Made by a program: the position numbers and the translations under genes | DNA from: an uncultured Thiothrix sp. | Lineage (GTDB): Bacteria; Pseudomonadota; Gammaproteobacteria; Poriferisulfidales; GCA-002705445 | Direction: 5' to 3' | Assembly: GCA_902624655.1 (NCBI GenBank) | Contig: CACNYJ010000002.1 | Location: 69,771 to 133,770 of the forward strand | DNA length: 64,000 bases | The notes under the pieces: generated by a model | What the model was told of the DNA's origin: nothing | The model's input: only the letters and a program-made list of their open reading frames with translations | Database searches by the model: none | Part shown: one piece after another, positions 38,702-55,783 of the stretch | How the letters are laid out: every line of letters starts with the position of its first letter | Numbering within the stretch: the stretch's first letter is position 1

Positions 38702-40135
38702 TCAAGTCAGTATCGCGAAAAGATAACTGAACACAAAATCTGGAAAAATAAAAATTGCAATTATTAAAAGTGGGATAATCGACAAAATGATCAAATTTAT
38801 CGTTCCACTTGATTTAACTAGACTATTAAAACCCTTCTCAAAAAACATGAACCAAATAACTCTTAAATAATAATATAAGCCTATAACTGTTAATAAAACA
38901 ACGATTACAGCGGTAATTATCATGTCTTGGTCAACAAGTGCGTCTAGAACAAGATATTTAGCATAAAAACCTATTGTCAGTGGAATGCCGGCTGTTGATA
39001 AAAGAGTTATCATAAATAATACGGAAATTAATCCAGATTTTGATGATAAACCTTTAAGATCTTTAATATAAACGACATCAAATTTATTTGAGGAAATAAA
39101 TGTAATGATAGATATTGCTGATACAGTTGTAACCGTATATGTAATTACGTAAAAAGCCGCTACGGAAAAGTTAAATTCTAAGGAGGCAAATATGGCCAAA
39201 AATATGAAACCTGAATTAGCAACTCCAGAGTATGCAAGCATTCTCATTATTTTTTGCTGAGCTAAAGCATACATATTTCCAATGAAAATTGAAAATATCC
39301 CTAAATATAAAATAAACTTGGAAAAGTTATCATCATATAAGATTTGATTATCATTTAAAAAACGATAAGCAAAAATAAAAAATGCAATTTTTGGTATTGA
39401 TGCAATAAAATTTGTGATTGGTAGAGGGGCACCCTCGTAAACATCAGGAAGCCACATATGAAATGGTGCTACTGCAAATTTAAATGCCACCCCAATAAAA
39501 ACAAGTATATAGGAGAAAAGATATAGATTTGATAATTCATTATTAGACAAATAGTTTGCTATTTCATTAATCATAAGCGAATTTGTTATCCCATATAAAT
39601 AAGAAAAACCAAATAAAATTAAGGCTGAGGCAATAATACTTAAAACAAAATATTTTATGGCAGCCTCTCCTGAAATAAGACTAGTTCGGTTTAATGCTAT
39701 TAGCGAGTATAGACTTAAAGAAGATAGCTCGATACCAAGGAAAAGAGTAATCAAGTTATTTGCTGAAATTATTATTAAACATCCAATCAAAGCGAATAAG
39801 AGTAATGAATAAAATTCGCCCGAAATTAATTCTTTATCTCTTAGATATTTCTGCGAAATTAAGATTTGTATTAAAAAAACTATGTAACAAATAATTTTAA
39901 AAAACTCTGTGACATTACTTTTAATTAAAGAGTCATTGAATATGAAAACAGAATCGTCTGTATAAGCAAAAAAGCTTAATAACATTGCAATTATAGTAGA
40001 TACTATTGTTATATTAATAACATGTTTTTTTAATGACTTGAAAATTCCAGCTAAGAGAATAGTCATTGCCATAAAAAATAAAAATATTTCAGGCGCAAAA
40101 TTAGATAAACTCATCAATGTATCATTCAGATTCAT
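38702..40135 (-). CDS. nuoN: NADH-quinone oxidoreductase subunit N
   Basis: 477 aa polytopic antiporter-like subunit. Last gene of a contiguous nuoA-N operon. Confidence 0.9.
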   Translation of the reverse strand: MNLNDTLMSLSNFAPEIFLFFMAMTILLAGIFKSLKKHVINITIVSTIIAMLLSFFAYTDDSVFIFNDSLIKSNVTEFFKIICYIVFLIQILISQKYLRDKELISGEFYSLLLFALIGCLIIISANNLITLFLGIELSSLSLYSLIALNRTSLISGEAAIKYFVLSIIASALILFGFSYLYGITNSLMINEIANYLSNNELSNLYLFSYILVFIGVAFKFAVAPFHMWLPDVYEGAPLPITNFIASIPKIAFFIFAYRFLNDNQILYDDNFSKFILYLGIFSIFIGNMYALAQQKIMRMLAYSGVANSGFIFLAIFASLEFNFSVAAFYVITYTVTTVSAISIITFISSNKFDVVYIKDLKGLSSKSGLISVLFMITLLSTAGIPLTIGFYAKYLVLDALVDQDMIITAVIVVLLTVIGLYYYLRVIWFMFFEKGFNSLVKSSGTINLIILSIIPLLIIAIFIFPDFVFSYLFAILT

Positions 40136-41631
40136 ATTTTTAAAATTATATTATTTGTCAAATTTTGTAAGGTAATATTCATATAAGTCATCATATAATC
40201 AGGATAGATGCCGAGAATTAAAACTATTAAAGCTAGTGAGAAAAGTATAATTTTCTCTAGAAAGTTTGCGTCAATATCATTGTTCAAGCCCGCCTTTAAT
40301 TCACCATAGATTACTCTTTTTACTAACCACAGTGAATAGACAGCTGATATTATTAAAGTCGAAGACGCAAGAAAAGCAAAAATAAAGCTTGTTTTAAAAG
40401 ATGCAAGTATAATTAATAATTCACCTACGAAACTGGATGTTCCTGGTAAACCGCAATTTGCTAAAGCAAAAAAAACAAAAAACCAGCTATAAACTGGCAT
40501 CTGATTTAATAATCCACTTAGATCAGATATTTTTTTTGTCTTATATCTATCATATATTGAACCAACACAAATGAATAAAGCGGCTGAAACAAAGCCGTGA
40601 GATATAATTTGATACATGCTCCCAGAAAGACTTACTACAATATCATTTTGTATTTTTGTACTGTCAAATAATTGAAAAATTAAAAAGAAACCAAGAGTCA
40701 CAAAACCCATGTGTGATATAGATGAATAAGCAATTAATTTTTTCATATCATTTTGAGTTATAGCTACAATTCCAACATAAACTATTGCAATTAAAGACAA
40801 AATTATAAAAAACATATCAAGTGAAGAGGCTCCCAAAGGGACCACCGGTAAGACATATCTAATAAATCCATAAGCACCAACTTTTAACAATATAGCGGCT
40901 AAAACGACAGATCCAGAAGTAGGAGCCTCGACATGAGCATCAGGAAGCCATGTATGAAAGGGAAACATTGGTATTTTTATAGCGAAAGCTATTGCCATAG
41001 CTATAAACAACCATTCTTGTTCAATTAGCGAAAAATTAGATTCGTAAAAAGATAAAACATTAAATGAAGAAATCGAAGAGTTTATATATAAGAAAGCAAT
41101 TAGTAAAAGAATAGAGCCCAAGAATGTATATATAAAAAATTTAATTGAGGCATAAATCCTATTAGCACCGCCCCATATTCCTATAATCAAGAACATAGGA
41201 ATTAATAATGCTTCAAAAAATATATAAAATAGAATTGCGTCTAATGCTGAAAAAACACCAATTGTTAATCCATTCGCTAGAAGAAAACTAGCATAATACT
41301 GGTTTCGATTTTTAAGATTGAGTGTAGAATTATATAAAGAAACAATCAAAAATATGATTGTATTGAGAAAAATTAATAATACCGAAATCGCATCAACACC
41401 AAGAAAATAATATATATTAAGTGAGGGTATCCAATTGGTATTTTCTATAAATTGAAAATTCGTCGAAGTTTGATTATAGCTATTTAACAAAATCAATGAT
41501 AAGAAGAAAACTATAAAATTTATAATTATATTAAGAAAATTTAGAACAGCATCATTTCTTTTGTAAAATAAAATCATTAATCCAGATATTATTGGTAACC
41601 ATATTAAAAAAGATAAAATATTATTAATCAT
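40132..41631 (-). CDS. nuoM: NADH-quinone oxidoreductase subunit M
   Basis: 499 aa antiporter-like subunit. Operon position. Confidence 0.9.
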   Translation of the reverse strand: MINNILSFLIWLPIISGLMILFYKRNDAVLNFLNIIINFIVFFLSLILLNSYNQTSTNFQFIENTNWIPSLNIYYFLGVDAISVLLIFLNTIIFLIVSLYNSTLNLKNRNQYYASFLLANGLTIGVFSALDAILFYIFFEALLIPMFLIIGIWGGANRIYASIKFFIYTFLGSILLLIAFLYINSSISSFNVLSFYESNFSLIEQEWLFIAMAIAFAIKIPMFPFHTWLPDAHVEAPTSGSVVLAAILLKVGAYGFIRYVLPVVPLGASSLDMFFIILSLIAIVYVGIVAITQNDMKKLIAYSSISHMGFVTLGFFLIFQLFDSTKIQNDIVVSLSGSMYQIISHGFVSAALFICVGSIYDRYKTKKISDLSGLLNQMPVYSWFFVFFALANCGLPGTSSFVGELLIILASFKTSFIFAFLASSTLIISAVYSLWLVKRVIYGELKAGLNNDIDANFLEKIILFSLALIVLILGIYPDYMMTYMNITLQNLTNNIILKI

Positions 41632-43538
41632 AGTACCCTCGCTAATATAATTCCAAAAATTACTACAAGTGAAAAGACAATTAAAAATGCATAGTGGTAT
41701 AGATAACCACTACTTACACTTTTAAAATAAGTAGATAATTTATTAATTTTTCTTGGCAATCCGTTAACAATGAAGCTATCAATAATCTTAATATCAAATT
41801 TTGTTGCTGCAAAATAAGATGTTGCTTTCATAAAATCGGAACAATTTAAAAAGAATTCATCAAATTTATATTTTGATTTAATAATCATTGATATTTTTTT
41901 GAAATACTTATTTGATAAAAAAGATATTTCTTTATTATCTAAGTAAAGATGTTTCGCAATAAAAAATCCAGCAATTAAGGTAACGGAAGCAGGTGATAAA
42001 ACACCGTGCGAGATAAATGGTAATAAGCCTTCGTAATGTATCTCTTTTACTCCAAACATAAAAATTGGAAGCTCAACAAATGTGTGTATCACAAACCCTG
42101 ATATTAAGGAAAGAGTGGCTAAGATTATAAGGGGCGACAAAATAACAAAGGATTCTTCATGAATTTTCTTGATATCCCCTCCTCTATAAGTTCCATAAAA
42201 CACAATAAATATTAGTCTTAGCGAATATACAGTAGTAACTAACGCCCCAATTAAAAGTAATATATAAACAAAAAATGATAAATCTGTATTTTCATAAAGC
42301 ATTACTTCTAATATAAGATCCTTTGAAAAAAACCCTGAAGTTAGCGGAAAACCAATAATACATAGTGTGCCAACCAAAAAACAGAAATGTGTTATGGGCA
42401 ATCTTTTTCTTAAGCCGCCCATTTTTGTAATGTCTTGATTATGATGAAGCGACATAATAACTGATCCTGCGCATAAGAATAGTAAGGCCTTAAAAAAAGC
42501 ATGTGTATATAAATGAAAAAATGATACCGTATATGCATTTATTCCTAAGGCAGATACCATATAGCCTAACTGTGAGATTGTTGAATAAGCAATTACTTTT
42601 TTAATGTCATTATCGAAAATTGCAATTACGCCTATAAAGAGTGCAGTTAACGCCCCAATTATCAGTATAAAGTCCGTTGTGACTTCTGCATAAATATAAA
42701 CTGGGGATAATCTTGCAACCATAAATATCCCAGCAGTTACCATTGTTGCCGCATGAATTAGTGCAGAAATAGGTGTTGGTCCTTCCATTGAGTCTGGCAA
42801 CCAAACGTGTAATGGAATTTGTGCAGACTTTGCCATTGCGCCTATAAATAAAAAGAAACAGGCAATATCTATGTAATTGAAACCGTAATAATATTCTAAA
42901 TTGCTAATATCGACTAATTTTAGATTTGAAAACATTGTCTTGTAATCAAAGGAATCTAACAAGACAAAAATCATTATTATTCCAATTATAAAAAACATGT
43001 CCCCTATTCTATTAATAAGAAAAGCTTTTAGGTTTGCTTTAATTGCAGATTCTTTTTTGTAAAAGAATCCTATCAATAGATAAGAAACTAAACCAACTCC
43101 CTCCCATCCAATAAATAATTGAATAAGATTATTTGACATAACTAATAAAATCATGGAGAAAGTAAATAAAGCAATATAAGAAAAAAATCTTTTGAAATCT
43201 TTCTCGTCTCTCATATAACCAATGCTATAAACATGAACAACAAACGAAATCAGAAGAACAACAACCATCATCATAGCTGAAAGCTTATCAATTAAGTAAC
43301 CCATGCCAATATTTAATCCGCTAATCGATATCCATTGGTAGAAATCATCATAAAGAATACTGTTCTCGTTTGTGAAAGAATAGTAAAAGATAACTAAAGA
43401 AAAAATAAAAGAAATAAAAACTAATATCGAGCTAATAATACCTGCATTTATATTGGTTAATTTACTGGAAGAAAATCCCATAACTGCTGAGCTTAAAACT
43501 AGCAATATTGGTATACTAATTATTAAATTTTCCAACAT
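41628..43538 (-). CDS. nuoL: NADH-quinone oxidoreductase subunit L
   Basis: 636 aa antiporter-like subunit with the long C-terminal helix region. Confidence 0.9.
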   Translation of the reverse strand: MLENLIISIPILLVLSSAVMGFSSSKLTNINAGIISSILVFISFIFSLVIFYYSFTNENSILYDDFYQWISISGLNIGMGYLIDKLSAMMMVVVLLISFVVHVYSIGYMRDEKDFKRFFSYIALFTFSMILLVMSNNLIQLFIGWEGVGLVSYLLIGFFYKKESAIKANLKAFLINRIGDMFFIIGIIMIFVLLDSFDYKTMFSNLKLVDISNLEYYYGFNYIDIACFFLFIGAMAKSAQIPLHVWLPDSMEGPTPISALIHAATMVTAGIFMVARLSPVYIYAEVTTDFILIIGALTALFIGVIAIFDNDIKKVIAYSTISQLGYMVSALGINAYTVSFFHLYTHAFFKALLFLCAGSVIMSLHHNQDITKMGGLRKRLPITHFCFLVGTLCIIGFPLTSGFFSKDLILEVMLYENTDLSFFVYILLLIGALVTTVYSLRLIFIVFYGTYRGGDIKKIHEESFVILSPLIILATLSLISGFVIHTFVELPIFMFGVKEIHYEGLLPFISHGVLSPASVTLIAGFFIAKHLYLDNKEISFLSNKYFKKISMIIKSKYKFDEFFLNCSDFMKATSYFAATKFDIKIIDSFIVNGLPRKINKLSTYFKSVSSGYLYHYAFLIVFSLVVIFGIILARVL

Positions 43539-43540
43539 TT

Positions 43541-43846
43541 TTATCCCTTCAATTTATTGATTAGATTAATTTCCAAAGAATTTCTAGCTCTAAATAAAGA
43601 TACAATTATTGCTAAACCGATAGCAGATTCTGCTGCTGCAACAGCAAGAATAAAGAAAACAAAAACTTGGCCAGTAATGTCATTACTATAGTTAGAAAAA
43701 ATTATAAAATTCGTATTTACGGACAAAAGCATTAATTCTATTGACATTAACAATAGGAGAATATTTTTTCTATTTATAAATATTCCTGCAACACTAATAC
43801 AAAAAAGCAATGCACTAAAAACAAGATAATGAGTCATAGTGATCAT
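43541..43846 (-). CDS. nuoK: NADH-quinone oxidoreductase subunit K
   Basis: 101 aa, three-helix membrane subunit. Confidence 0.9.
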
Positions 43847-44427
43847 AATTCGTCATCCTTTAAAATTTTAAGTCTTTTTTCCTTTGTTTCTAATATTTGT
43901 TTTCCAGGATCTTGTCTCAGCGCTCTTTGTCTATCTGTCATATTTATTGCAATTGCTGCTATAATTGCAACTAGTAAAATAAAAGCAGTAACCTCAAAAG
44001 AAAAAATATGCTCTGTAAATAGTAATAAGCCTATTTCGTAGGTATTACTTGTATTTTTATTAACAATTTCAACAGTGGAATTTTGAAAATCATGGTAAAA
44101 AATTACCAAATAAAGTTCCGCGAACATTATTGCAGATATAGTAACTGAAAATAATAGATAAAGTTTTTTACTAACCGTTTTCTTTACTTGAATGTCAAGT
44201 AACATTATTACAAACAAAAAAAGAACAAGTACAGCACCAACATATACTAATACTAATACAATCGCTAAAAATTCTGCATTCATCATCAGCCACAAAACTG
44301 CGGTGTTGAAAAAAATTAGAACTAATAAAAGTGCTGCGTGAACAGTGTTATTTACGATAATAAGACCGATAGAAGATATGATAACTACTGAGGTTACCAA
44401 ATAAAATAAAATTGAGATTATATCCAT
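43843..44427 (-). CDS. nuoJ: NADH-quinone oxidoreductase subunit J
   Basis: 194 aa membrane subunit. Operon position. Confidence 0.85.
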
Positions 44428-44432
44428 TATTA

Positions 44433-44915
44433 TTAGTTTCTCTGTGCTTTTGCTGCTTGATCAACTGAAATTTCTTCTTCAAATCTCTCGCCAATTTTTA
44501 ACAAATCTCCCTTTTGTAAAATATTTTCGCCTCTATCCTCAAAATGATATTCAAATATTCTTGTTTCAACAATCGCATCTACTGGGCATGCTTCCTCACA
44601 AAATCCGCAAAAGATGCACTTAAACAAATCGATATCATACCTTGTTGTTCTTCTAGTTCCATCGTTTCTTTCTTCAGTGTCAATGTTAATCGCAAGTGCT
44701 GGGCAAACTGCTTCACATAATTTACAACCTATACATCTTTCCTCTCCACTAGGATATCTTCTTAAGGCATGAAGTCCCCTGAATCTTGGCGACTGCGGAG
44801 CTTTTTCAAAAGGATAATGTAAAGTTGATTTCTTCTTAAACATATTGCTAAATGTTACTTTCATTCCGAGAAGTAACTCATAAAGAAAAAAACTTTTTAA
44901 ATAATTTTTTAACAT
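44433..44915 (-). CDS. nuoI: NADH-quinone oxidoreductase subunit I
   Basis: Two 4Fe-4S motifs, [12 protein letters not shown] and [12 protein letters not shown]. Confidence 0.95.
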
Positions 44916-44923
44916 CTATGTCT

Positions 44924-46027
44924 CTAATTAAACCAAGGGCCAATTTTATAATGGATAAATAGCATTTCTACAAATATCCATACTAAAGTTAAAGGAATCA
45001 AAATTTTCCAACCTAATCTCATTATTTGATCGTATCTATATCTTGGGAAAGTAGCTCTAAACCAAATAAAACAGAACATAAAAAATAATGTTTTTAAAAT
45101 AAACCAGTGAATACCATCGTTTATAAAAAATAATATTATGTTATTGGTAAAATCGTTTACGGCAAAGGTACCCAAAGACTCGACCGAAAAAGGCGAAAGC
45201 CATCCTCCAAAAAACAATATTGCTGTTAAGGCTGAAATTAAAATCATATTTGCATATTCTGCTATAAAAAAAACTGCAAAACCCATTCCAGAATACTCGA
45301 CATGAAAGCCCGCAACTAATTCTGATTCTCCTTCAGCGACATCAAATGGTGCTCTGTTTGTCTCTGCAACACCAGCAATAAAGTAAATAATAAATAATGG
45401 AAATAATGGAACCCAAAGCCAATTAAAAAAACTTCCTTTTTGAATACTAATAATATCACCAAGATTTAAACTTCCAGAGACCATGATAACGCCAACTAAC
45501 GAAAAGCCCATTGCAATTTCATAAGCAATTATTAATGCTGCTGATCGCATAGCGCCTAACAATGCATATTTTGAGTTTGAAGCCCAACCAGCAATTATAA
45601 TTCCATATATACCAAGCGATGTCATTGCTAATATATATAAAAGGCCTGCATTTATATCAGAAAGAACAAGCACGCTATCAAAAGGAATCACGGCCCAAGC
45701 TGCAAATGCAACAGTAAAAGTAATTATTGGTGCTAATAGGAATAAAAACTTATTTGAATCAGTTGGAATTACTATTTCTTTAAAAAATAATTTAACACCA
45801 TCAGCGAAAGGCTGTAATAAACCTTTTGGCCCAACAACATTTGGTCCGAGACGACCCTGCATTGACGCAATAATTTTTCTTTCTGCATAAGTATAATAAG
45901 CCACAAGGATTAAAAGTGGAACCATGATCATTGTAATTAATATCAGAGTATATGGAAGTATGCTTAATCCATTAAAATAAGCTAATAAAATATTAAAATA
46001 ATTAACTATATAATCAAACATTTTCAA
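44924..46027 (-). CDS. nuoH: NADH-quinone oxidoreductase subunit H
   Basis: 367 aa polytopic ND1 homologue. Confidence 0.9.
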
Positions 46028-48377
46028 TTGTTATTGGTTGGTATTGTTTTCCTAACTCAAAATGTTCTTTATTTGAGTTTGATATGTAAATACAATCATC
46101 AGATACATTTTCGTCAACTGATAATTTTACTAGTAAACTTTTTTCGCCCTGCTTTAGAATTACTTTCTTTTTCTCGAGATCGATATTATTTTGCTCCAAG
46201 GTTTTTTTGTTTACACACACGAGATTTTTATTCTTATTTACAGTATTTAATGAGATTGATCTACGAGTAATATTATCAATGAAATAACAGTAATTACCTC
46301 CTGTTCTTGTTAAGTAATTATTACTTTTTACATCAAATATGAAATTTTCCATTTTATTTGATTCAATAGATTTTATATTGCGTATTTCATGATCTACTTC
46401 ATTTAATATATCAATATAATCTAATGAGTTACTTAATTGGACTCCACTTTCGAGACGGAGTTTCGTTAATATTTTCCAGCCTTCCTTTGAATCAAAATGT
46501 GGTAAGCAGCCTTGTGCAAATGATTGCCATTCTTTCTCTATATTGATGAATGTTCCGGGACTTTCAAACGAAGTTGCGAGAGGTAAAATTACATCGTATA
46601 AATTTTTATCTTCTTCTGTGACAAAACTTTGAAATCCTAAAACAAATTTTGCACTTTCTAAAGATTTTTTCATTTCCGAATAATAATAAAAATCTATTAG
46701 ATCAAGATTGTAGATTATATAGGAATCTAGTTTTTTAATAATTGAATCTTTAATATTCAAGCCGTGGTGCTTTGCAGAAATATTTCCTATATCTCTATGC
46801 GGCAAGCATCCTGTAAGCCACGCACCAGCTTCATTACTTGTGTCTCCCAAATAACATGTACTTGATTTTGTATAAATAGAAATAATATTTGTTAATATTT
46901 TAAGTGACTGAAAATCTGGATGATTTTTTAAATTTGATCCTAAAAAAATAATTGAGTTACTATGCAAAAGATCATTTGATACTTCAATTATATTATTATT
47001 TGTTAAACCTTTAAAATTTTTCTTAATTGATTCTGGAATTATAAACTTTTTCAATGTTTTATCATTTACGGTAATAATAGATAAATATTCGATAATATCG
47101 ATAAGAGTTTCTGCAAGATAATTAGGATTAATTAGCAATGAGTTTTTTAAATCAAAGTTATTTTTATAATTATAAGTATGAATTGAATTTATTTTTGCAT
47201 CGTTTAAAAAAGCTTTTCTGATTTTATGAGAAAGAATAGGTTGCTCGTAAGTAATATTACTGTCAATTAATAATATTGATTTACATTTTTCTATATCTTT
47301 AATTGGGATATCAATCTTTGGAAATATGTCTTCTTCATCGTAATCAAAATTACTTTGGGATACCCTATGATCAATGTTAAAAATATTATTTTCTCTTAAC
47401 CATTTTTGAAAAAGGTATTGCTCCTCTACAGTTGAACTTGCGCTAATAAAACCAGCTGTACTACTTGAATCAATATCAGTCATATTATTTTTTATTATTT
47501 CTAACGCTTGTTCCCATTCAACTTCCATGTGTCGGCCGTTTATTTTAGCTATTGGTTTTCTTACTCTATCTTTATGTTCCATTGCCTCATATGAAAATCT
47601 ATCTCTGTCAGATATCCATGTCTCATTAATCTTCTTGTTTTCGTGTGGAACTACTCGAAATATACTATTATCTAAAATATGTAAATTCATGTTTGATCCT
47701 ACACAGTCATGAGGTGATATATATTTTACTTCCTCAAGTTCCCAGGTTCTGCCCTTCATATGAGATGGAGCCGCATTCAAGGCACCAACTGGACATATAT
47801 CAATCATATTTCCTGACATTGGCGAATTTATTGCTGATGTTAAATAAGTTCTAATTTCCATGGATTCGCCTCTGCCAATCGCCCCAAACTCTTTAATACC
47901 TGCTATTTCTTCTCCGTATCTGACACATCTAGTGCAATGAATACACCTTGTCATGTTAGTCTTTATTAATGGACCAATGTAATGATCTAAAACAACCCGT
48001 TTTTCTTGTTCATATCTAGATTTTACTCTTCCATGCATCAAAGCTTGATCTTGCAACTCACACATTCCTCCTTGATCGCAGACTGGACAATCAAGTGGAT
48101 GATTAATTAACAAAAATTCCATAGTATTTTTTTGTGAGTTAACGGCTAAATCAGATTTTGTGAAATACTCTTGATTTTCCATAGCAGGTGTTGAGCATGC
48201 AGGCTGTGGTTTATTTACACCAACTTGTTCCACAAGACACATTCTACAATTTGCTGCGATAGATAACTTTTCGTGATAACAAAATCTTGGAATGTGGATT
48301 CCGTTTCTATCAGCGACTTGTATCAAAGTTTCACCTTGACTAAAAGCACATTCTTTATTATTAATTTTTATTTTCAT
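46014..48377 (-). CDS. nuoG: NADH-quinone oxidoreductase subunit G
   Basis: 787 aa with an N-terminal 2Fe-2S motif (CRMCLVE) and 4Fe-4S motifs ([10 protein letters not shown]), plus a molybdopterin-like domain. Confidence 0.9.
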
Positions 48378-48387
48378 AATAGATTAA

Positions 48388-49728
48388 TTATTTTCTACTA
48401 AGTATGAATTCGTTATTCAAAGGCTCTGAGAAACTCTTGTTGTTTGCTAGTTTTTCTGTTGGTAATTTAATGTATTCTAGAAATTCATTCTTATAATGAG
48501 TTACAAAACTTTCTACAGGCATTGCTGCTGCATCGCCGAGTGCACATATTGTACTTCCTGAGATCATTTTTGGAATTGATTCCAAGGTTTTTAAATCTTC
48601 GAGAGTTCCTTTTCCTTTTAAAATTTTATCAATAACTTTAAACATCCAGCCGGTGCCCTCTCGGCATGGAGTGCATTGTCCACATGATTCAGAATAATAG
48701 AATCTTGCTATCCTATGAATAACCTCAACCATATTTGTATCTTCGTCCATTATTATGACTGCCCCGGAACCTAATAAAGAGCCAGACTTAGCAATGGATT
48801 CGTAATCCATATTGGTTTCTAACATTATTTCGCCAGGTACTACAGGGACGGATGAGCCACCCGGTATTACAGCTTTTAGCTTCTTACCGTCTTTCATTCC
48901 TCCAGCAAGCTCAAGAAGAGTTTTGAAAGGAGTACCTAAAGGGATTTCAAAATTACCAGGATTATTTACATGTCCAGACACAGAGAAACATTTGAACCCT
49001 GCGCTATCTTTTGTCCCAAAAGAACTAAACCAGTCTGGTCCTTTGCCAATAATTTTTGGTATTGAGGCTAGTGTCTCAACATTATTAATAATTGTAGGTG
49101 AGCCAAAAAGACCTTTTACTGCAGGAAATGGTGGCTTATATCTTGGAAATCCTTTCTTGCCTTCTATGGATTCGAGCATTGCTGTTTCTTCGCCAACAAT
49201 GTATGCGCCAGCACCTATTAGATCATGCAGCTCTATACATATATCTGTATTTAAAATATTTTTTCCTAAAAGTTTATTTTGATAAGCATCTTTTAAAGCA
49301 TTTTTAAAACTGGTGTAGACGTCATCAATAAACTCGCCTCTTAGATAGCAATAAGCGGTCTCAGCACCAATAGCATAGCTTGCAATTAACATTCCCTCAA
49401 TTAAAGCATGTGGATTATATCTTAAAATATCTCTATCTTTGCAAGTTCCAGGCTCTGACTCATCAGCATTACAAACAAGATATTTTATGGCATCCGAGTC
49501 CTGATTTATAAAACTCCACTTTCTTCCGGTTGAAAAACCTGCGCCGCCTCTGCCTCTCAAGCCTGATTCGATAACAGAATTAATAATTTCCTTTTTATCT
49601 GGAAGTTCTTTTAGAATTTTTTTCCAGGTTACATATCCACCTTGAGAAACATATGTTTCATATGAATTAGGACTATCGCTAGATAAAGTAGAATAGCATA
49701 GCTCGTTAATATTAAATTTATCTTTCAT
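48388..49728 (-). CDS. nuoF: NADH-quinone oxidoreductase subunit F
   Basis: GRGGAGFSTGRKW FMN/NADH site and a C-terminal 4Fe-4S motif (ESCGQCTPCREG). Confidence 0.95.
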   Translation of the reverse strand: MKDKFNINELCYSTLSSDSPNSYETYVSQGGYVTWKKILKELPDKKEIINSVIESGLRGRGGAGFSTGRKWSFINQDSDAIKYLVCNADESEPGTCKDRDILRYNPHALIEGMLIASYAIGAETAYCYLRGEFIDDVYTSFKNALKDAYQNKLLGKNILNTDICIELHDLIGAGAYIVGEETAMLESIEGKKGFPRYKPPFPAVKGLFGSPTIINNVETLASIPKIIGKGPDWFSSFGTKDSAGFKCFSVSGHVNNPGNFEIPLGTPFKTLLELAGGMKDGKKLKAVIPGGSSVPVVPGEIMLETNMDYESIAKSGSLLGSGAVIIMDEDTNMVEVIHRIARFYYSESCGQCTPCREGTGWMFKVIDKILKGKGTLEDLKTLESIPKMISGSTICALGDAAAMPVESFVTHYKNEFLEYIKLPTEKLANNKSFSEPLNNEFILSRK

Positions 49729-50215
49729 TTTCTAAGCCATCAATAATTGAATCTATTTTTTCTTTTGTTAAGTTTTCATAATACTTATGATTTACTTGCA
49801 TCATTGGAGCGCCACAACATGCTGCTAAACATTCTCTTTCATCTTTTAAAAAATATTTTTCTGATGAATCGCCAACCTTAATTTTTAACTTATCCTCTAA
49901 GTACTTTAAAATTTCATCTGAACCATTAAGCATGCAAGATACATTTGTGCACACTGAAATTGTATGCTTCCCGACTTGTTCTGTTTCAAACATTGAGTAG
50001 AAGGATGCAACCTCGTAAACATCAATTTTTTTTAATCCTAAAAAATCTGCTACTGCATTAACATGTTCGCTCTTGATATATTTAGTCTCATGTTGAATCA
50101 AGTGAAGAGCGTAAATTATTGCAGGTTTTTTTTGGTCAATAGGGAATTTCGCTAACCATTTGTTAATTTTTGAAGAAATTTCGCTCGAAATGTTGTAGCT
50201 TGTATTTTCCTGCAT
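49718..50215 (-). CDS. nuoE: NADH-quinone oxidoreductase subunit E
   Basis: 165 aa thioredoxin-like 2Fe-2S subunit (CTNVSCMLNG...CLAACCGAP). Confidence 0.9.
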   Translation of the reverse strand: MQENTSYNISSEISSKINKWLAKFPIDQKKPAIIYALHLIQHETKYIKSEHVNAVADFLGLKKIDVYEVASFYSMFETEQVGKHTISVCTNVSCMLNGSDEILKYLEDKLKIKVGDSSEKYFLKDERECLAACCGAPMMQVNHKYYENLTKEKIDSIIDGLENER

Positions 50216-50221
50216 CGTTTT

Positions 50222-51475
50222 TTACCTATCTATTTCACCAAAAACAATATCCTGGGTTCCAATTATTGCAACAACGTCTGAGATCATATGACCGTTTACC
50301 ATCTCATTTAATGCAGCTAAGTGAGGAAAACCGGGGGCTCTCATTTTTAACCGATAGGGTTTATTTGAACCATCTGATATTAGTGTAACTCCGAATTCAC
50401 CTTTTGGATGTTCTACGGCACAATACACTTCACCTTTCGGAATACAGTAACCCTCCGTAAAAAGTTTGAAATGATAAATTAAAGATTCCATATCTTCCTT
50501 TACTTCGTCTCTACTTGGGGGTGTGATTTTATTATTGTCAGATATAGTTGGTCCGTTATTATTCTTTAACCAATCAACACACTGGCGAATAATTTTGTTT
50601 GATTGTCTCATCTCTTCAATTCTTACTAAATATCTGTCATAACAATCGCCGTTGGTCCCAATTGGAATATCAAAATCAAGAAGATCATATATTTCGTAAG
50701 GCTGTTTTTTTCTAAGGTCCCAAGCAATTCCTGACCCTCTTAACATTGGCCCTGTGAATCCAAGCTGAAATGCTCTTTCTTTTGAAACAATGCCAATATC
50801 CACGGTTCTTTGCTTCCAAATCCTATTATCAGTTAATAAAGTTTCATATTCGTCCACACACTGCGGAAATCTATCCGTAAAGTTTTCTATAAAATCAAGT
50901 AAAGTGCCCTCTCTCGCCTCATTTAATTTATTTACTTCTTTTTTTGATTTCCATTTGGTTTCTTCGTACTTAGGCATATTTAAAGGAAGGTCTTTTGAAA
51001 CTCCACCGGGCCTATAATACGTCGCATGCATTCTTGTTCCAGAAACGGCTTCATAACAATCCATTAAATCTTCTCTCTCTCTAAATGCGTAAAGAAAAAC
51101 ACTCATTGCTCCAATATCAAGCGCATGTGCTCCTAACCACAACAAATGATTTAATACACGAGTTATTTCATCAAACATAACTCGGATGTATTGGGCTCTG
51201 AGAGGAACATCAATTTCTAAAAGTTTTTCTATTGACAAAACATAAGCATGTTCATTGCTCATCATTGAGACATAATCAAGCCTGTCCATGTAGCCAATAC
51301 TTTGGTTATAAGGTTTGCTTTCGGCGAGTTTTTCGGTACCTCGATGAAGAAGGCCAATGTGTGGATCGGCTCTTACAATAACCTCTCCCTCAAGTTCTAA
51401 AATAAGTCTAAGAACACCATGGGCTGATGGGTGTTGAGGTCCAAAATTCATAGTAAAGCTTTTAATATCAGGCAT
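50222..51475 (-). CDS. nuoD: NADH-quinone oxidoreductase subunit D (separate from NuoC; likely start at MPDIK; the ORF track extends to 51499)
   Basis: [25 protein letters not shown] 49-kDa subunit signature. Confidence 0.95.
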
Positions 51476-52184
51476 CTTTGACCTCCTTCTCGTTACCATC
51501 TCGAATGACTTTTGGTATTAAAACCCTAGGTTTTATAGTTACTGGCTGATATACAACTCTTTCTTTGTTTAAGTCATAATTAACTTCGACATTTCCAATT
51601 AAAGGAAAATCTTTTCTTAAAGGATGTCCAATAAAACCGTAGTCAGTCAGAATTCTTCTAAGATCAGGGTGGCCAATAAAAACAATACCAAATAAATCAT
51701 ATGCTTCTCTTTCATACCAGTCAGCTGATGACCATACTGAAGTTATGCTCGGTAAGGAAGGGTTCTTGTCGTTATCGCAATAAAATTTTACATTTAGTCT
51801 TTCATTTGAACTTATTGAAAGTAAGTTATATATTACACAAAATCTTTTCTTCGGTTGATTGTGATGTGTTTTTGAAGTTTCATAAGTATACCTGCCACTG
51901 CTATCTTTAGTAATTCCTCTGCTATACCCCTTATTATTAGCACTTTTCGCATTCCATTCACTTAATCCAAAATCAGAATAGTCGACCCCTACCACATCAA
52001 TAAGAATTTCGAATCTAATTTTTTCATTCTCCTTGAGATGTTTCATTATATAGATGAATTTTTCTGATTCATTAAACACAACTGTATTTTTATTTTCAAA
52101 ATCGTAAGAGAAATTTTTAAAATTATCTTCAAATAAATTCTTTAGATTCTTATTACTTATTTTATTGAGTAGATTTTCAGTCAT
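51468..52184 (-). CDS. nuoC: NADH-quinone oxidoreductase subunit C (likely start at MTENLL, 52184, with an AGGAA SD; the ORF track extends to 52313, overlapping nuoB)
   Basis: 30-kDa subunit motifs ([26 protein letters not shown]). Confidence 0.9.
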
Positions 52185-52209
52185 ATTTATTCCTAAATAG
52201 TGCAAAGAA

Positions 52210-52695
52210 TTATCTTTTAATTGATTTTTTGTTGTGTATTTTATTTTTAAGCTGAAGAATTCCATATAGAAGTGCTTCTGCAGTTGGAGGGCAACCTGGG
52301 ACGTAAATATCAACAGGTATTATTCTATCGCAGCCACGAACAACTGAATATGAGTAATGATAGTACCCTCCACCGTTAGCACACGAACCCATTGAAATTA
52401 CCCACTTAGGATCAGCCATCTGGTCATAAACTTTTCTGAGTGCTGGTGCCATTTTGTTTACCAAGGTTCCAGCAACAATAATAACATCAGACTGTCTAGG
52501 GCTTGGTCTAAACATCATGCCAAACCTATCTAAGTCATACCTTGATGCTCCGGCATGCATCATCTCTACTGCGCAGCAAGCTAACCCAAAAGTCATTGGC
52601 CACATTGAACCAGTGTTAGCCCAATTAATTAACTCCTTTGAAGATGTCGTTACATAACCATTACTGTTATTATTTAGTGATTCAATAATATTCAT
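52210..52695 (-). CDS. nuoB: NADH-quinone oxidoreductase subunit B
   Basis: CCAVEMM...[10 protein letters not shown]...VPGCPP, ligands of the N2 cluster. Confidence 0.95.
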
Positions 52696-52698
52696 TAT

Positions 52699-53055
52699 TT
52701 AGTCCCAATCTAAAGCTCCCTTTTTCCATTCATAAATGAATCCAATAACAAGAATTAACAAAAAAATACTCATTGCAATTAAACCACTTATCCCAAGATT
52801 TTCTAACGCAACTGCCCAAGGAAATAGGAAAGCAATTTCCAAATCAAAAATTATGAAGAGAATAGCTACTAGATAAAAACGTATATCAAATTTCATTCTA
52901 GCGTCATCAAAATTTTCAAACCCACATTCATAAGCAGATTCTTTTGCAGCATTTTGCTCACCTTTATTCAAAAAGCGAGAAACAATAATTGGAAGAGCTC
53001 CAATAGAAACGCTAACAATAATAAACAATAAAATGGGGAAATAATTATTTAACAT
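52699..53055 (-). CDS. nuoA: NADH-quinone oxidoreductase subunit A
   Basis: 118 aa, three helices, ECGFE motif. The start ATG has no SD of its own (see the uORF finding). Confidence 0.9.
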
Positions 53056-53127
53056 AATATTTTATACGCATAAACTCGTTAAATCTGGCTTTCTAACCAA
53101 ATACAAGTTATTTAACATAATATTTTT
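53046..53127. repeat. Pair of 19-bp direct repeats (TTATTTAACATAATATTTT) at 53046..53064 and 53109..53127, each spanning an ATG
   Basis: Exact match read directly from the sequence. One copy covers the nuoA start, the other the uORF start. Confidence 0.8.
53062..53118 (-). CDS. Candidate 18-codon leader uORF (MLNNLYLVRKPDLTSLCV) ending 6 nt before nuoA
   Basis: A GAGGAG SD sits 9 nt upstream of the ATG at 53118..53116. Its first four codons are identical to nuoA (direct repeat). The stop TAA is at 53064..53062. Confidence 0.3.
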   Translation of the reverse strand: MLNNLYLVRKPDLTSLCV

Positions 53128-53259
53128 CTCCTCAGCTAAAAATAAATTAAAACATATTAATGAAATAATACAATAGAAAAATTACATATTTTTTTTATAT
53201 AATTATATACACAATCTGTACAATATTTTTTTTGAAATGCTATTATTATCAATAACTTA

Positions 53260-53344
53260 TGGTGCCGATGGCCGGAGTCGAACCGGCACAGCTTTCGCCA
53301 CTACCCCCTCAAGATAGCGTGTCTACCAATTCCACCACATCGGC
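53260..53344 (-). tRNA. tRNA-Leu (anticodon GAG), 85 nt with encoded CCA
   Basis: Minus strand GCCGATGTGGTGGAATTGGTAGACACGCTATCTTGAGGGGGTAG...GGTTCGACTCCGGCCATCGGCACCA, similar to E. coli leuU. It sits 6 nt downstream of secG as in E. coli. Confidence 0.85.
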
Positions 53345-53349
53345 ATGTC

Positions 53350-53706
53350 TTAATCTGGGATATTTATATCATCTTGAGAATTATTATTTATAGCTGGATC
53401 TAACAAATCATTAGTTTCGTCATTATTAATTGATTCTTCATTTGAAATAATTACGCTCTCATTACCAACATTTGTTTTTGCGATATATGCTAATGCGAGG
53501 CAGTTTAAAAAGAAAAGAAATACGAGGAATGTAGTTAGTTTTGTAATAAAACTGCCTGCGCCACTTGCTCCAAATACTGCTCCTGAAGAACCGCCCCCAA
53601 ACATTCCGCTAGCATCTCCTTTACCTTTTTGCATTAGAATAAAAAAGATTATCAAAATTGATAATACTACTGCCGTTACCATTAAAATTGTATAAATCAT
53701 AACCAT
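53350..53706 (-). CDS. secG: Preprotein translocase subunit SecG
   Basis: 118 aa with two TM helices flanking the Gly-rich loop GDASGMFGGGSSGAVFGASGAGSF. Confidence 0.9.
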   Translation of the reverse strand: MVMIYTILMVTAVVLSILIIFFILMQKGKGDASGMFGGGSSGAVFGASGAGSFITKLTTFLVFLFFLNCLALAYIAKTNVGNESVIISNEESINNDETNDLLDPAINNNSQDDINIPD

Positions 53707-53709
53707 TCC

Positions 53710-54447
53710 TTATATTTGTAAGTTACAAATTCTTGTAAATTCTTCCACGTTTAATGATGCTCCACCAATTAAGATTCCATCAACAAATTGTGATGTTAAT
53801 ATCTCTTTCGCATTATCAAATGAAACACTACCGCCATACATTACCATTATATCTTTTTCTTTATATGAGGGAAGTTTTTGATTTAAATATTTTTTTATAA
53901 TTTCGTGAGTGTTGGAAATATCCTTTGAGGATGGAGTTAAACCAGTGCCAATAGCCCATATAGGCTCATATGCAATTATAAGGTCCATTGAATCATTATA
54001 TGCTTTTATTAAATCGTCCAGTTGAGAGTAAATTTTAGAAGAAATAAGATTCTTATCCCTATCAGATTTATTTTCGCCGACACAGAATATAATTTTCATT
54101 TTTTCGCACAACTTTGTCTTCAAGCTTAAAGAAACTTTTTCCTCATTTGCTCTATTTTCTGAGTGGCCTATTAGAATATATTCTAACGAGTTATCTTCCA
54201 GCATCTCGAAAGTAGTTCCTCCGGTAAGAGTAGAGTTATTTATATTAATATTAATATTTTGGCAGCCAAGATAAACAGGGTTATCTTTTCTTAATTCTGC
54301 GGCAAGGCTACAATATATGTCGGGTGGAAAAATTATAATTTCCTTATGAGGACTTTTTTCTAAATTCTTATCGAGGTAAGAGAAATATTTTTTAATAAAG
54401 TCTTTGCTACCATTATTTTTCCAATTTGCTGCAATAATTTTTTTCAT
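53710..54447 (-). CDS. tpiA: Triosephosphate isomerase
   Basis: AANWKNNG and AYEPIWAIGTG active-site motifs. Confidence 0.95.
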   Translation of the reverse strand: MKKIIAANWKNNGSKDFIKKYFSYLDKNLEKSPHKEIIIFPPDIYCSLAAELRKDNPVYLGCQNINININNSTLTGGTTFEMLEDNSLEYILIGHSENRANEEKVSLSLKTKLCEKMKIIFCVGENKSDRDKNLISSKIYSQLDDLIKAYNDSMDLIIAYEPIWAIGTGLTPSSKDISNTHEIIKKYLNQKLPSYKEKDIMVMYGGSVSFDNAKEILTSQFVDGILIGGASLNVEEFTRICNLQI

Positions 54448-54448
54448 A

Positions 54449-55783
54449 TTACTTTTTTAATTTTCCAGATAAAAAATTACTAACTTCTTTAGATTTTTCA
54501 TAAACTATTTTATCACTCTCAGCTTCTACCATTATTCTTACGCAATTTTCAGTTCCAGATTTTCTTATTATTAATCTAATTCTATTATCAATGTATTTAT
54601 CTAGTGTTTCCTTAATTGCTATATTAATAATATTTTCTGGTAAATTTTTATTTATTTTAAGGTTTGTTATTTTTTGTGGGAATTTCTTGAGAAAATCATT
54701 CGACCCACTACTTTTAAGAATACTAGAATAATATAAAAATACTAGTGAGGCTATAATTGAATCACCAGATGTAAGTTTATCTAGTAATAGTATATGGCCT
54801 GATGTCTCACCTCCAATAGAAAAATCATTTTTAATCATTTCTTCAAGAACGTTCTTATCTCCAACGCTTGACCGCAAAAATTTAATTTTTTCTTTTGCTA
54901 AAAAATTTTCAAATGCTAAATTTGTCATTGTTGTACCAACGACACCTTTAACCTCTTCTTTGTTCAAGAGTTTGCCTCGAATTATTGTATATAAAATATC
55001 ATCGCCATCTAATATCTTACCGCTTTTATCAGCTATTACTATTCTATCCCCATCACCGTCCATTGATAGTCCATAATCAGAGTTGTTTTTTTTAACAAGA
55101 TCTGGAAGATTATCAATTGAGGTAGAACCACAATTTTTATTTATATTTTTTCCGTTGGGTTCGTTATTATACGCAAAAACATTAAATCCATATTTTTTAA
55201 ATACTTCTTCAGCTATTTGGTAATTTGAACCGTTTGCTAAGTCTAAGGTGATATTGATATTATTTGATTCAAATTTCTCAAATTGCTTCAAACAAAACTT
55301 GATATATTCATTTTTTATTTCAACTGAGACATTATTAAGTACAATATTATCATTTTTAAATTCTTTTTCTTTTAAAGTTTCAATATAGTCTTCGATTAAA
55401 TTTTCATTATCAATTGATATTTTATGACCATAGGAATTAAAGATTTTTATTCCGTTATCGTGATATAAATTATGTGATGCACTAACCATAATACCGATAG
55501 TATAGTTTTTTTCTTTTGTAAAATGTGCAATTGCGGGTGTTGGTACGATACCGGCAATATCTATTTTACAATCTATGAATTGTAATCCTTCGGCTAAAAG
55601 ATTAATAATTTCATCACTAGACTCTCTTGTATCAGAGCCTATAATAACTGAATTATTTTTATTATCTTTCGAAAAAAAAGTTTTGCCAATTGAAGCGCCT
55701 AGGACTCTAAAAAAGTTTCGAGTATAAGGGTATTCACCGAATTCTCCTCGAATCCCGTCAGTACCAAAATATTTTCTAGGCAT
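54449..55783 (-). CDS. glmM: Phosphoglucosamine mutase
   Basis: GTDGIRG and the catalytic-Ser loop SASHN. Conserved position next to ftsH. Confidence 0.9.
   Translation of the reverse strand: MPRKYFGTDGIRGEFGEYPYTRNFFRVLGASIGKTFFSKDNKNNSVIIGSDTRESSDEIINLLAEGLQFIDCKIDIAGIVPTPAIAHFTKEKNYTIGIMVSASHNLYHDNGIKIFNSYGHKISIDNENLIEDYIETLKEKEFKNDNIVLNNVSVEIKNEYIKFCLKQFEKFESNNINITLDLANGSNYQIAEEVFKKYGFNVFAYNNEPNGKNINKNCGSTSIDNLPDLVKKNNSDYGLSMDGDGDRIVIADKSGKILDGDDILYTIIRGKLLNKEEVKGVVGTTMTNLAFENFLAKEKIKFLRSSVGDKNVLEEMIKNDFSIGGETSGHILLLDKLTSGDSIIASLVFLYYSSILKSSGSNDFLKKFPQKITNLKINKNLPENIINIAIKETLDKYIDNRIRLIIRKSGTENCVRIMVEAESDKIVYEKSKEVSNFLSGKLKK

Follow-up and report, generated by a model that had tools for sequence, protein, structure and literature searches.

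Complex I is the largest and most iron-demanding of the respiratory enzymes, and to our knowledge it is only in E. coli that the loading of ribosomes onto its 14-gene mRNA has been worked out; a leader ORF is not described there. The locus examined here raises the question of why a nuoA gene that lacks a Shine-Dalgarno (SD) sequence should be preceded by a short ORF that has one and that opens with the same nucleotides as nuoA itself. We addressed this question in a 64-kb stretch of DNA with a G+C content of ~32%, referred to here as the window. The gene order on its minus strand is glmM-tpiA-secG-tRNA-Leu-nuoA, with a spacer of 204 nt between the tRNA-Leu gene and nuoA, and the nuo operon consists of 14 co-directional ORFs whose sizes are those expected for nuoA-N. 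The first nuo subunits were assigned through Pfam families on contigs that encode identical or related proteins, and nuoF to nuoN by order and size only. The genes around the leader are as follows:

54449-55783, minus strand: glmM (ORF list)
53710-54447, minus strand: tpiA (ORF list)
53350-53706, minus strand: secG (ORF list)
53260..53344, minus strand: tRNA-Leu(GAG), the upstream neighbour of nuoA (ARAGORN; Rfam tRNA, 50.6 bits)
52699..53055, minus strand: nuoA, NADH-quinone oxidoreductase subunit A, 118 aa (ORF; PF00507 on the identical protein in public contigs; homologues)
38702..52695, minus strand: 13 more co-directional ORFs, taken as nuoB-nuoN (ORF list, junction gaps)

The initial annotation of this region described an upstream ORF of 18 codons with a GAGGAG motif and a 9-nt spacer, ending 6 nt before the nuoA ATG, and our re-reading of the minus strand returned the same geometry. 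The leader contains these elements:

53128..53133, minus strand: GAGGAG, the SD sequence of the leader ORF, read from the sequence, with a 9-nt spacer to the leader ATG
53110..53122, minus strand: upstream copy of the 13-nt start block TATTATGTTAAAT; the exact repeat reaches 19 nt here, 53108-53126
53062..53118, minus strand: leader ORF, 18 codons (MLNNLYLVRKPDLTSLCV) plus TAA, with its ATG at 53118..53116 and its TAA at 53064..53062
53056..53061, minus strand: AATATT, the 6-nt gap in the sequence between the leader stop and the nuoA ATG (53055)
53047..53059, minus strand: copy of the 13-nt start block that covers the nuoA ATG, with the exact repeat reaching 53045-53063

The annotation had also reported a 19-nt block that occurs twice, and we found exactly two copies of this block (AAAATATTATGTTAAATAA) in the window, at 53108-53126 and 53045-53063, 63 nt apart. 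When the window was shuffled 100 times with its dinucleotides preserved, two copies never arose, even when 2 mismatches were tolerated. There is no third copy of the 13-nt block in the 64-kb window, and a scan of its 55 other gene starts turned up no upstream duplicate of the respective start above 10/13. The SD sequence likewise sits at the upstream ORF alone, as had been stated, with a predicted anti-SD duplex of -9.2 kcal/mol for the leader ORF against +0.6 kcal/mol for nuoA. It had been argued from this that nuoA needs coupling to be translated, but this is a weak argument, as only 13 of the 57 genes in the window have a strong SD motif at their start (background 6%), and a predicted duplex of -4 kcal/mol or better is found at only about a third of the starts. 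Because SD-less starts are the rule in this genome, the SD-less nuoA is unremarkable by itself and does not on its own imply a helper. What can be said of the junction is that co-directional ORFs with an overlap or a gap of no more than about 10 nt are the mark of a coupled cistron pair, and the 6 nt found here lie within that range. Further down the operon, each of the 13 nuo junctions in the window is either an overlap or a gap of 10 nt or less, and the 6-nt junction between the leader and nuoA looks like these other junctions and fits the design of the operon.

To place the leader in a wider context, we compared NuoA with public protein sequences and retrieved the contigs that encode the matches, which gave 42 non-chimeric loci of one clade, representing ~12 distinguishable lineages. 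An identical NuoA is encoded on four short marine metagenome contigs, three of which are Tara Oceans scaffolds, and the clade as a whole was recovered in Tara Oceans and many other ocean metagenomes. NuoA proteins of the clade are 82-100% identical to that of the window. Because GlmM, the product of a nearby gene, is only ~56-66% identical between lineages (outside the window's own lineage group), we regard the 42 loci as a deep clade of uncultured marine Gammaproteobacteria. In all 42 of them the 13-mer is present in exactly two copies, one at the nuoA start and one upstream of it, with a spacing of 82-84 nt in most lineages and 62-63 nt in the subclade of the window. The nearest outgroup, L001, with a NuoA that is 78% identical, is without the duplicate start, and in 153 further proteobacterial nuoA loci the start is nowhere duplicated above 10/13. 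The 13-nt core is missing from 154 other nuoA loci. A single copy of the 13-mer was found in L200 and none in the other 159 loci. L200 was at first sight a member of the clade without the upstream copy, but we rejected it as a chimeric assembly: its identity to L201 is 99% in the initial 200 nt of nuoA and drops to 74.5% beyond them, and both L201 and L202 have the normal two-copy leader. Across these loci, the duplication shows a single origin and is restricted to one clade.

The degree to which the block has been kept becomes clear when it is set beside its surroundings. Mean pairwise identities among the 12 lineages are as follows:

Upstream 13-mer: 100%
13-mer at nuoA: 100%
Promoter-like block (described below): 83%
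Whole nuoA: 80%
nuoA third codon positions: 57%
From the -10-like hexamer to the upstream copy: 57%
Between the two copies: 57%

Conservation breaks off sharply at either end of the block, at positions -4 and +9 counted from the ATG. Because the 13-mer is 100% identical where its flanks and the third codon positions are at 57% and GlmM is at ~56-66%, the upstream copy is, by this comparison, under strong purifying selection. Direct repeats of 13-19 nt that lie 63-83 nt apart would be prone to loss by slippage, yet the upstream copy has been lost in no lineage of the clade. On the strength of its conservation, we consider the duplicated start to be a real, selected element that is present clade-wide.

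Conserved columns upstream of the leader ORF delimit a candidate promoter, which a simple consensus scan had missed, and a second conserved segment lies further upstream:

53144..53173, minus strand: promoter-like block, with a -35-like TTGTAT at 53173..53168, an 18-nt spacer and a -10-like TAATTT at 53149..53144 (conserved columns)
53186..53222, minus strand: conserved upstream block (TGTACAGATTGTGTATATAATTATATAAAA...), which contains TATAAT at 53207..53202 (leader comparison)

The consensus of the promoter-like block is TTGTAw, 18 nt and TAATTT, and its key columns are invariant in all lineages, including the single-copy outgroup L001. From this block, a transcription start near 53137 is likely, ~19 nt upstream of the leader ATG (~19-23 nt across the clade). 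The initial annotation had instead named the TATAAT at 53207..53202 as a -10 element; this hexamer sits within a conserved block, but it is not itself conserved in other lineages. The distance from the promoter-like block to the upstream copy is 21-25 nt across the clade. In L001 the promoter-like block directly precedes the nuoA start, and because of this the leader start appears to occupy the ancestral position of the nuoA start. An old duplication of ~83 nt around the nuoA start would then have placed a new copy of the start downstream, while the original remained beside the promoter and the intervening DNA decayed; a later loss of ~20 nt in the subclade of the window would have given the 63-nt spacing. 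Since homology of the repeat units beyond the core is seen only in the L171 lineage, where 14 of 20 upstream nucleotides match (p 0.002), the comparison suggests this tandem-duplication history only weakly. We also considered the insertion of a MITE with target-site duplication, but no convincing terminal inverted repeats were seen by eye, there are no other copies, and the conservation would be left unexplained.

In contrast to the start block, the rest of the leader ORF is free to vary. Across the clade it has 4, 11, 12, 17, 18, 20, 22, 25 or 30 codons, and the only part that the leader peptides have in common is Met-Leu-Asn. Four non-synonymous changes and one synonymous change in the leader ORF already separate close strains of the window's lineage, and a 1-nt deletion among them shifts the frame and moves the leader stop onto the nuoA ATG (ATGTTAA). 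Leader stops range from -70 to +10 relative to the nuoA ATG, and one strain has a leader of 4 codons. Because peptides, lengths and stops vary even among close strains, the comparison does not support a function at the level of the peptide, and the 6-nt gap is specific to the lineage. Conservation of the peptide and of the 6-nt spacing, on which the initial annotation had proposed to judge the leader, was accordingly found for neither. Two further features of the window, an ATTTAAC anti-motif inside the leader ORF and an inverted repeat of 18 nt whose arms lie in the tRNA trailer and at the leader start, were set aside, as they are not conserved even in the closest strains.

Where the leader ORF ends is less free than how long it is. 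The length of the leader ORF alone is not significant in any lineage. In 6 of 12 lineages, however, the ORF ends in the interval -12..+10 around the nuoA ATG, where shuffles would lead one to expect 1.5 (P ~0.001), and the same test on a reduced set of lineages gave 4 of 9 leader ORFs against 1.05 expected (P ~0.014). The leader stops 20-70 nt upstream of the nuoA ATG in 6 of the 12 lineages. The block itself has a TAA in both alternative frames (A-TGT-TAA; AT-GTT-AAA-TAA), and therefore a leader ORF that is open and out of frame ends right at the nuoA start.

The placement of the ribosome-recruiting signal also differs between lineages. The SD sequence of the leader is strong in the subclade of the window and in L180/L181/L201, of moderate strength in L085, and either weak or missing in all others, and the predicted anti-SD duplexes at the two starts fall into two groups:

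Window subclade and L180/L181/L201: leader start -5.9 to -9.3 kcal/mol, nuoA start -0.9 to +1.3 kcal/mol
L165, L169, L171, L178, L179, L185 and L191: leader start +0.6 to -3.3 kcal/mol, nuoA start -3.2 to -5.6 kcal/mol

SD strength at the two starts is thus anticorrelated (Spearman rho -0.78, p 0.001, 14 sequences; by lineage, rho -0.74, p 0.015, 10 lineages), and the leader stops at nuoA in 5 of 6 cases when nuoA is SD-less against 2 of 8 otherwise (one-sided p 0.05), all of these being statistics that ignore shared ancestry, with the state of a strong upstream SD represented by essentially two subclades. The pattern fits ribosomes that enter at one start or the other and that, if they enter upstream, are carried to nuoA by the leader ORF. 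In our view this reciprocal placement of the SD offers the strongest support for coupling in the lineage of the window. In E. coli and Haloferax volcanii, termination-reinitiation is almost lost once stop and start lie ~20 nt apart (PMC10666635), and because the leader stops at least 20 nt upstream in 6 of 12 lineages, coupling cannot, on these distances, be the function that conserves the block clade-wide. The proposal that nuoA is coupled to the leader therefore stands in part: for the lineage of the window it is favoured by the excess of stops near nuoA, the anticorrelation (rho -0.78) and the tight junctions, while as an account of the whole clade it fails with the half of the lineages that stop too early.

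The reading that brings most of these observations together is that a second, promoter-proximal copy of the nuoA start block (UAUUAUGUUAAAU) opens a short leader ORF that receives the ribosomes. In the course of events that we infer, which takes in the transcription start, translation of the leader and re-initiation as well as the duplication history given above, transcription in the window's lineage would begin ~19 nt upstream of the leader ATG, and ribosomes would load at the 5' copy, which here bears the only SD sequence. They would then translate the 18 leader codons, terminate 6 nt before the SD-less nuoA AUG and re-initiate there, as may also happen at the operon's other tight junctions. 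Across the clade, the ribosome-recruiting signal would be found at either start; if it is upstream, the leader ORF would reach the nuoA start, and in lineages with an SD-like motif at nuoA the leader ORF may stop early. Indirect evidence that leader and nuoA share one transcript and that the leader is translated comes from the promoter-like block conserved ahead of the leader ATG and from the strong SD sequence. By its layout, the duplicated start has in this lineage the anatomy of a coupled "cistron zero", and its leader ORF probably feeds ribosomes into the nuo operon. For the clade as a whole, we consider it about an even call that a selected, promoter-proximal duplicate start forms the "cistron zero" of the nuo mRNA, heading a leader that is present clade-wide and whose ORF sequence is unconstrained.

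Structure in the leader RNA was considered separately. Folded one at a time, 13 leaders do not exceed shuffles in stability (z -2.2 to +1.0), and RNAalifold returned no conserved structure for the leaders, with a consensus of -0.83 kcal/mol and only a weak A-U hairpin around the nuoA AUG. In a search of 52950-53400 with Rfam 15, only the tRNA passes, and the other matches have 10-19.5 bits and E values of at least 1.3. As fold z-scores, the RNAalifold consensus and Rfam are all against it, a structured RNA or riboswitch was rejected.

The main rival to "cistron zero", or possibly its complement, is a shared trans-acting regulator. Here, the 13-nt block would be the site of one RNA-level regulator, either an sRNA (for example, an iron-responsive one) or an RNA-binding protein, which occludes the start codon so that both starts are shut off together; translation of the leader ORF would not conflict with such a regulator. 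We hold this to be unlikely, although it is the alternative to be taken most seriously. A block that is sharp-edged and identical at both starts in all lineages, with flanks at the neutral level, is typical of a discrete recognition site, and conserved cis RNA structure does not account for it. Thirteen fixed bases with sharp edges at -4 and +9 should exceed the need of a ribosome, and their identity would be better explained by a sequence-specific partner. At nuoA itself, codons 2 and 3 are likewise invariant at their synonymous third positions, but TTA and AAT are preferred codons at 32% GC, which makes this weak evidence. There is also a precedent in E. coli, where RyhB pairs with 21 nt over the nuoA ribosome-binding site (RBS) and start codon and represses the operon (Chareyre et al. 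2019, PMC6497325). That system has in common with ours post-transcriptional control of the whole operon at the RBS and start of nuoA, and a conserved nucleotide block over the start codon, as expected of an sRNA target, is found here in the 13-mer that is invariant at both starts. It differs in that the block is here present twice and no sRNA is known, so that the resemblance is one of analogy. No partner is known, and the 64-kb window, a small part of the genome, holds no convincing complement to the block elsewhere and no further copies of it. Moreover, a shared regulator would leave the reciprocal SD pattern and the excess of leader ORFs that end at nuoA unexplained. The specific form in which the block is a dedicated element for an iron- or redox-responsive sRNA or RNA-binding protein, with its two copies silencing the leader entry site and the nuoA start together, is one we would call rather doubtful. 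If true, it would amount to a "tandem-start" switch that controls entry into complex I synthesis in an uncultured clade of marine gammaproteobacteria.

A different kind of shared site is conceivable at the level of DNA, where a transcription factor would use the two copies as operators. Situated downstream of the promoter, with both facing the same side of the helix, they would work through a roadblock or a DNA loop, and the ATG in the upstream copy would be incidental. The spacing of the copies falls into only two classes, 62-63 and 82-84 bp, or ~6 and ~8 helical turns, and the rest of the intergenic region varies more. What suggests a DNA-level reading is only this pair of classes, and two are too few to establish phasing, with ~0.3 expected by chance for one deletion. 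The upstream copy would lie at ~+15 to +28 of the predicted transcript, which is a common position for an operator. The block also contains TGTTAA, which we take to be a half-site of E. coli ArcA, and ArcA represses nuo in E. coli; the resemblance of the block to Fur or ArcA boxes is presumably weak. Set against this, the block lacks symmetry: it contains neither a dyad nor an internal direct repeat, a second half-site is missing at a distance of 11 bp, and the 64 kb hold no further copies of the block. Operators would also leave the leader-ORF endings at nuoA and the reciprocal SD strength without an explanation, and altogether we find this reading improbable.

More improbable still is a classical regulatory leader peptide, in which the ribosome stalls on the nascent peptide or on particular codons and thereby switches an RNA structure or terminator, as in trpL, ermCL and tnaC. 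The leader of this large operon does contain what such a system would need, a short ORF preceded by an SD. The peptides differ past Met-Leu-Asn, however, with 4-30 codons and a frame-shifting deletion of 1 nt in close strains, and the leader has no terminator-like site, no stable or conserved fold and no Rfam match. The comparisons therefore largely refute this reading, and an attenuator was rejected on the same grounds, as no terminator-like site is present in the leader and the peptide is unconstrained. Finally, the initial annotation had offered an inert local duplication of the nuoA start as its alternative, and such a neutral fossil would agree with a single origin in one clade only and with the decay of the sequence between the copies, but it is scarcely credible for 13 consecutive positions that are letter-perfect in ~12 lineages of a deeply diverged clade, with neutral sites at 57% and GlmM at ~56-66% identity, for a copy lost in no lineage though direct repeats favour deletion, and for SD and stop patterns that are non-random. 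The comparisons refute it unless gene conversion homogenises the block, which would be unusual for an identity of 13-19 nt, and the flanks of the two copies show no consistent co-variation.

The "cistron zero" reading can be compared with several known systems. E. coli nuoA-N is under transcriptional control by ArcA, NarL, FNR, IHF and Fis, and the likeness to our locus is that the regulatory input is concentrated upstream of nuoA. The sites of these factors lie around or upstream of the promoter, whereas the element described here is a copy of the start-codon region. We know of no uORF described in the E. coli nuoA leader, and our literature search found no description of a uORF or leader ORF of nuoA. 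There is also a likeness to termination-reinitiation pairs (Huber et al. 2019, PMC6728339; 2023, PMC10666635), with which the locus shares co-directional ORFs, a stop 6 nt before the start in the window, stop-start overlaps in other lineages of the clade (ATGTTAA; ...GTTAAATAA), a downstream start that is SD-less and tight junctions throughout the whole nuo operon. The upstream partner here is no gene but an unconstrained ORF of 18 codons that opens with a copy of the nuoA start, and the short distance is found in only half of the lineages. Bacterial uORFs and leader peptides, such as trpL, pheL, ermCL, tnaC and mgtL (for a search tool, see uORF4u, PMC10219788), resemble the locus in that a short ORF, conserved in its position and its start, lies in the 5' leader of an operon. 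In contrast to these, the leader here has no conserved peptide, regulatory codons, alternative RNA structures or terminator, and its conserved part is a 13-nt start block identical to the start of the main ORF.

A duplicated start that has been kept more strictly than either the promoter or the NuoA protein provides a testable control point for the expression of complex I. The clade also offers a natural comparison, with the ribosome-recruiting signal on the leader ORF in some lineages and on nuoA in others, and it bears on how translation of long operons starts in SD-poor, streamlined genomes. The duplicate has consequences for annotation as well. We considered an N-terminally longer NuoA, as homologues of 125-150 aa are present in public data, but these are gene-caller extensions in varying frames that share no conserved extension. 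In some lineages, public gene callers have also annotated the leader ORF as a gene of 30 aa that overlaps nuoA, and both the false N-terminal extensions and these 30-aa "genes" are cases in which the duplicate start has misled them.

Across all clade loci, the 13-nt start block at the nuoA start (53047-53059 in the window) is separated from its upstream copy (53110-53122), which opens the leader ORF (18 codons in the window), by distances of only two classes, namely 62-63 nt and 82-84 nt. Expressed in turns of B-DNA, these spacings come to about 6 and about 8, respectively, and length variation is greater in other parts of the nuoA intergenic region than between the copies. Both start blocks are also present in the unaltered nuoA leader of some contigs of the L185 lineage (L188-L190), where the gene called upstream belongs to the peroxidase family rather than being tpiA-secG, and lies about 600 nt away.

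The wider nuo operon (38702-53055, minus strand) is tightly packed in the window, with all 13 of its 13 cistron junctions either overlapping or having a gap of 10 nt or less, and most of the downstream nuo starts lack a Shine-Dalgarno (SD) sequence. Judged from this arrangement, the entire operon looks as though it is built for sequential translational coupling. An SD is likewise absent at nuoA of the single-copy outgroup L001, which has a 5-codon mini-ORF of its own (ATG AAA TTA TTA TGC TAG, within 1470-1510) whose stop overlaps the nuoA start; this mini-ORF may be a chance occurrence in AT-rich sequence.

A further conserved element lies 40-75 nt 5' of the promoter-like block in the window, L085 and L165-L202:

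53186-53222, minus strand: second conserved block, at the equivalent position in L085 and L165-L202

The window version of this block is GATTGTGTATATAATTATATAAAA, and the majority of other lineages have GGTTGTGTATATTACCCCATAAAAT. The block does not match sigma-70 promoter spacing, and could be a site for a regulator or else an upstream promoter element.

Complementary sequences were found near both starts:

53030-53063, minus strand: weak A-U-only hairpin at the nuoA start (AAAUAUUAU / GUUAA / AUAA.UAUUU; alignment A3 columns 99-122)
53241-53258 / 53105-53122: 18-nt inverted repeat between the tRNA-Leu trailer and the leader ORF start, 83% complementary

The hairpin is of marginal stability and can form in all lineages, with a compensatory change at one pair in alignment A3. 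The inverted repeat is not kept in other lineages, and is therefore probably a chance match in AT-rich DNA.

The duplicated start misleads public gene calls (P0009, P0029, P0030, P0033, P0043, P0048, P0057, P0073-P0080, P0088, and P0089; L181, L201, and L202). Among the NuoA entries, some have spurious N-terminal extensions, giving proteins of 125-150 aa in frames that vary by lineage, and on some contigs an upstream "gene" of 30 aa (93 aa in one case) is called, with an 11-nt overlap into nuoA. Chimeric joins occur in or beside nuoA in several metagenome assemblies (L200; L198 and L199; P0002, P0086, and P0087), and L200 switches partners about 65 nt 5' of the ATG and a second time near +200. 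In some NuoA entries, 181-206 aa long, the conserved middle part is repeated in tandem within the protein, probably through an assembly artefact at a 12-residue region.
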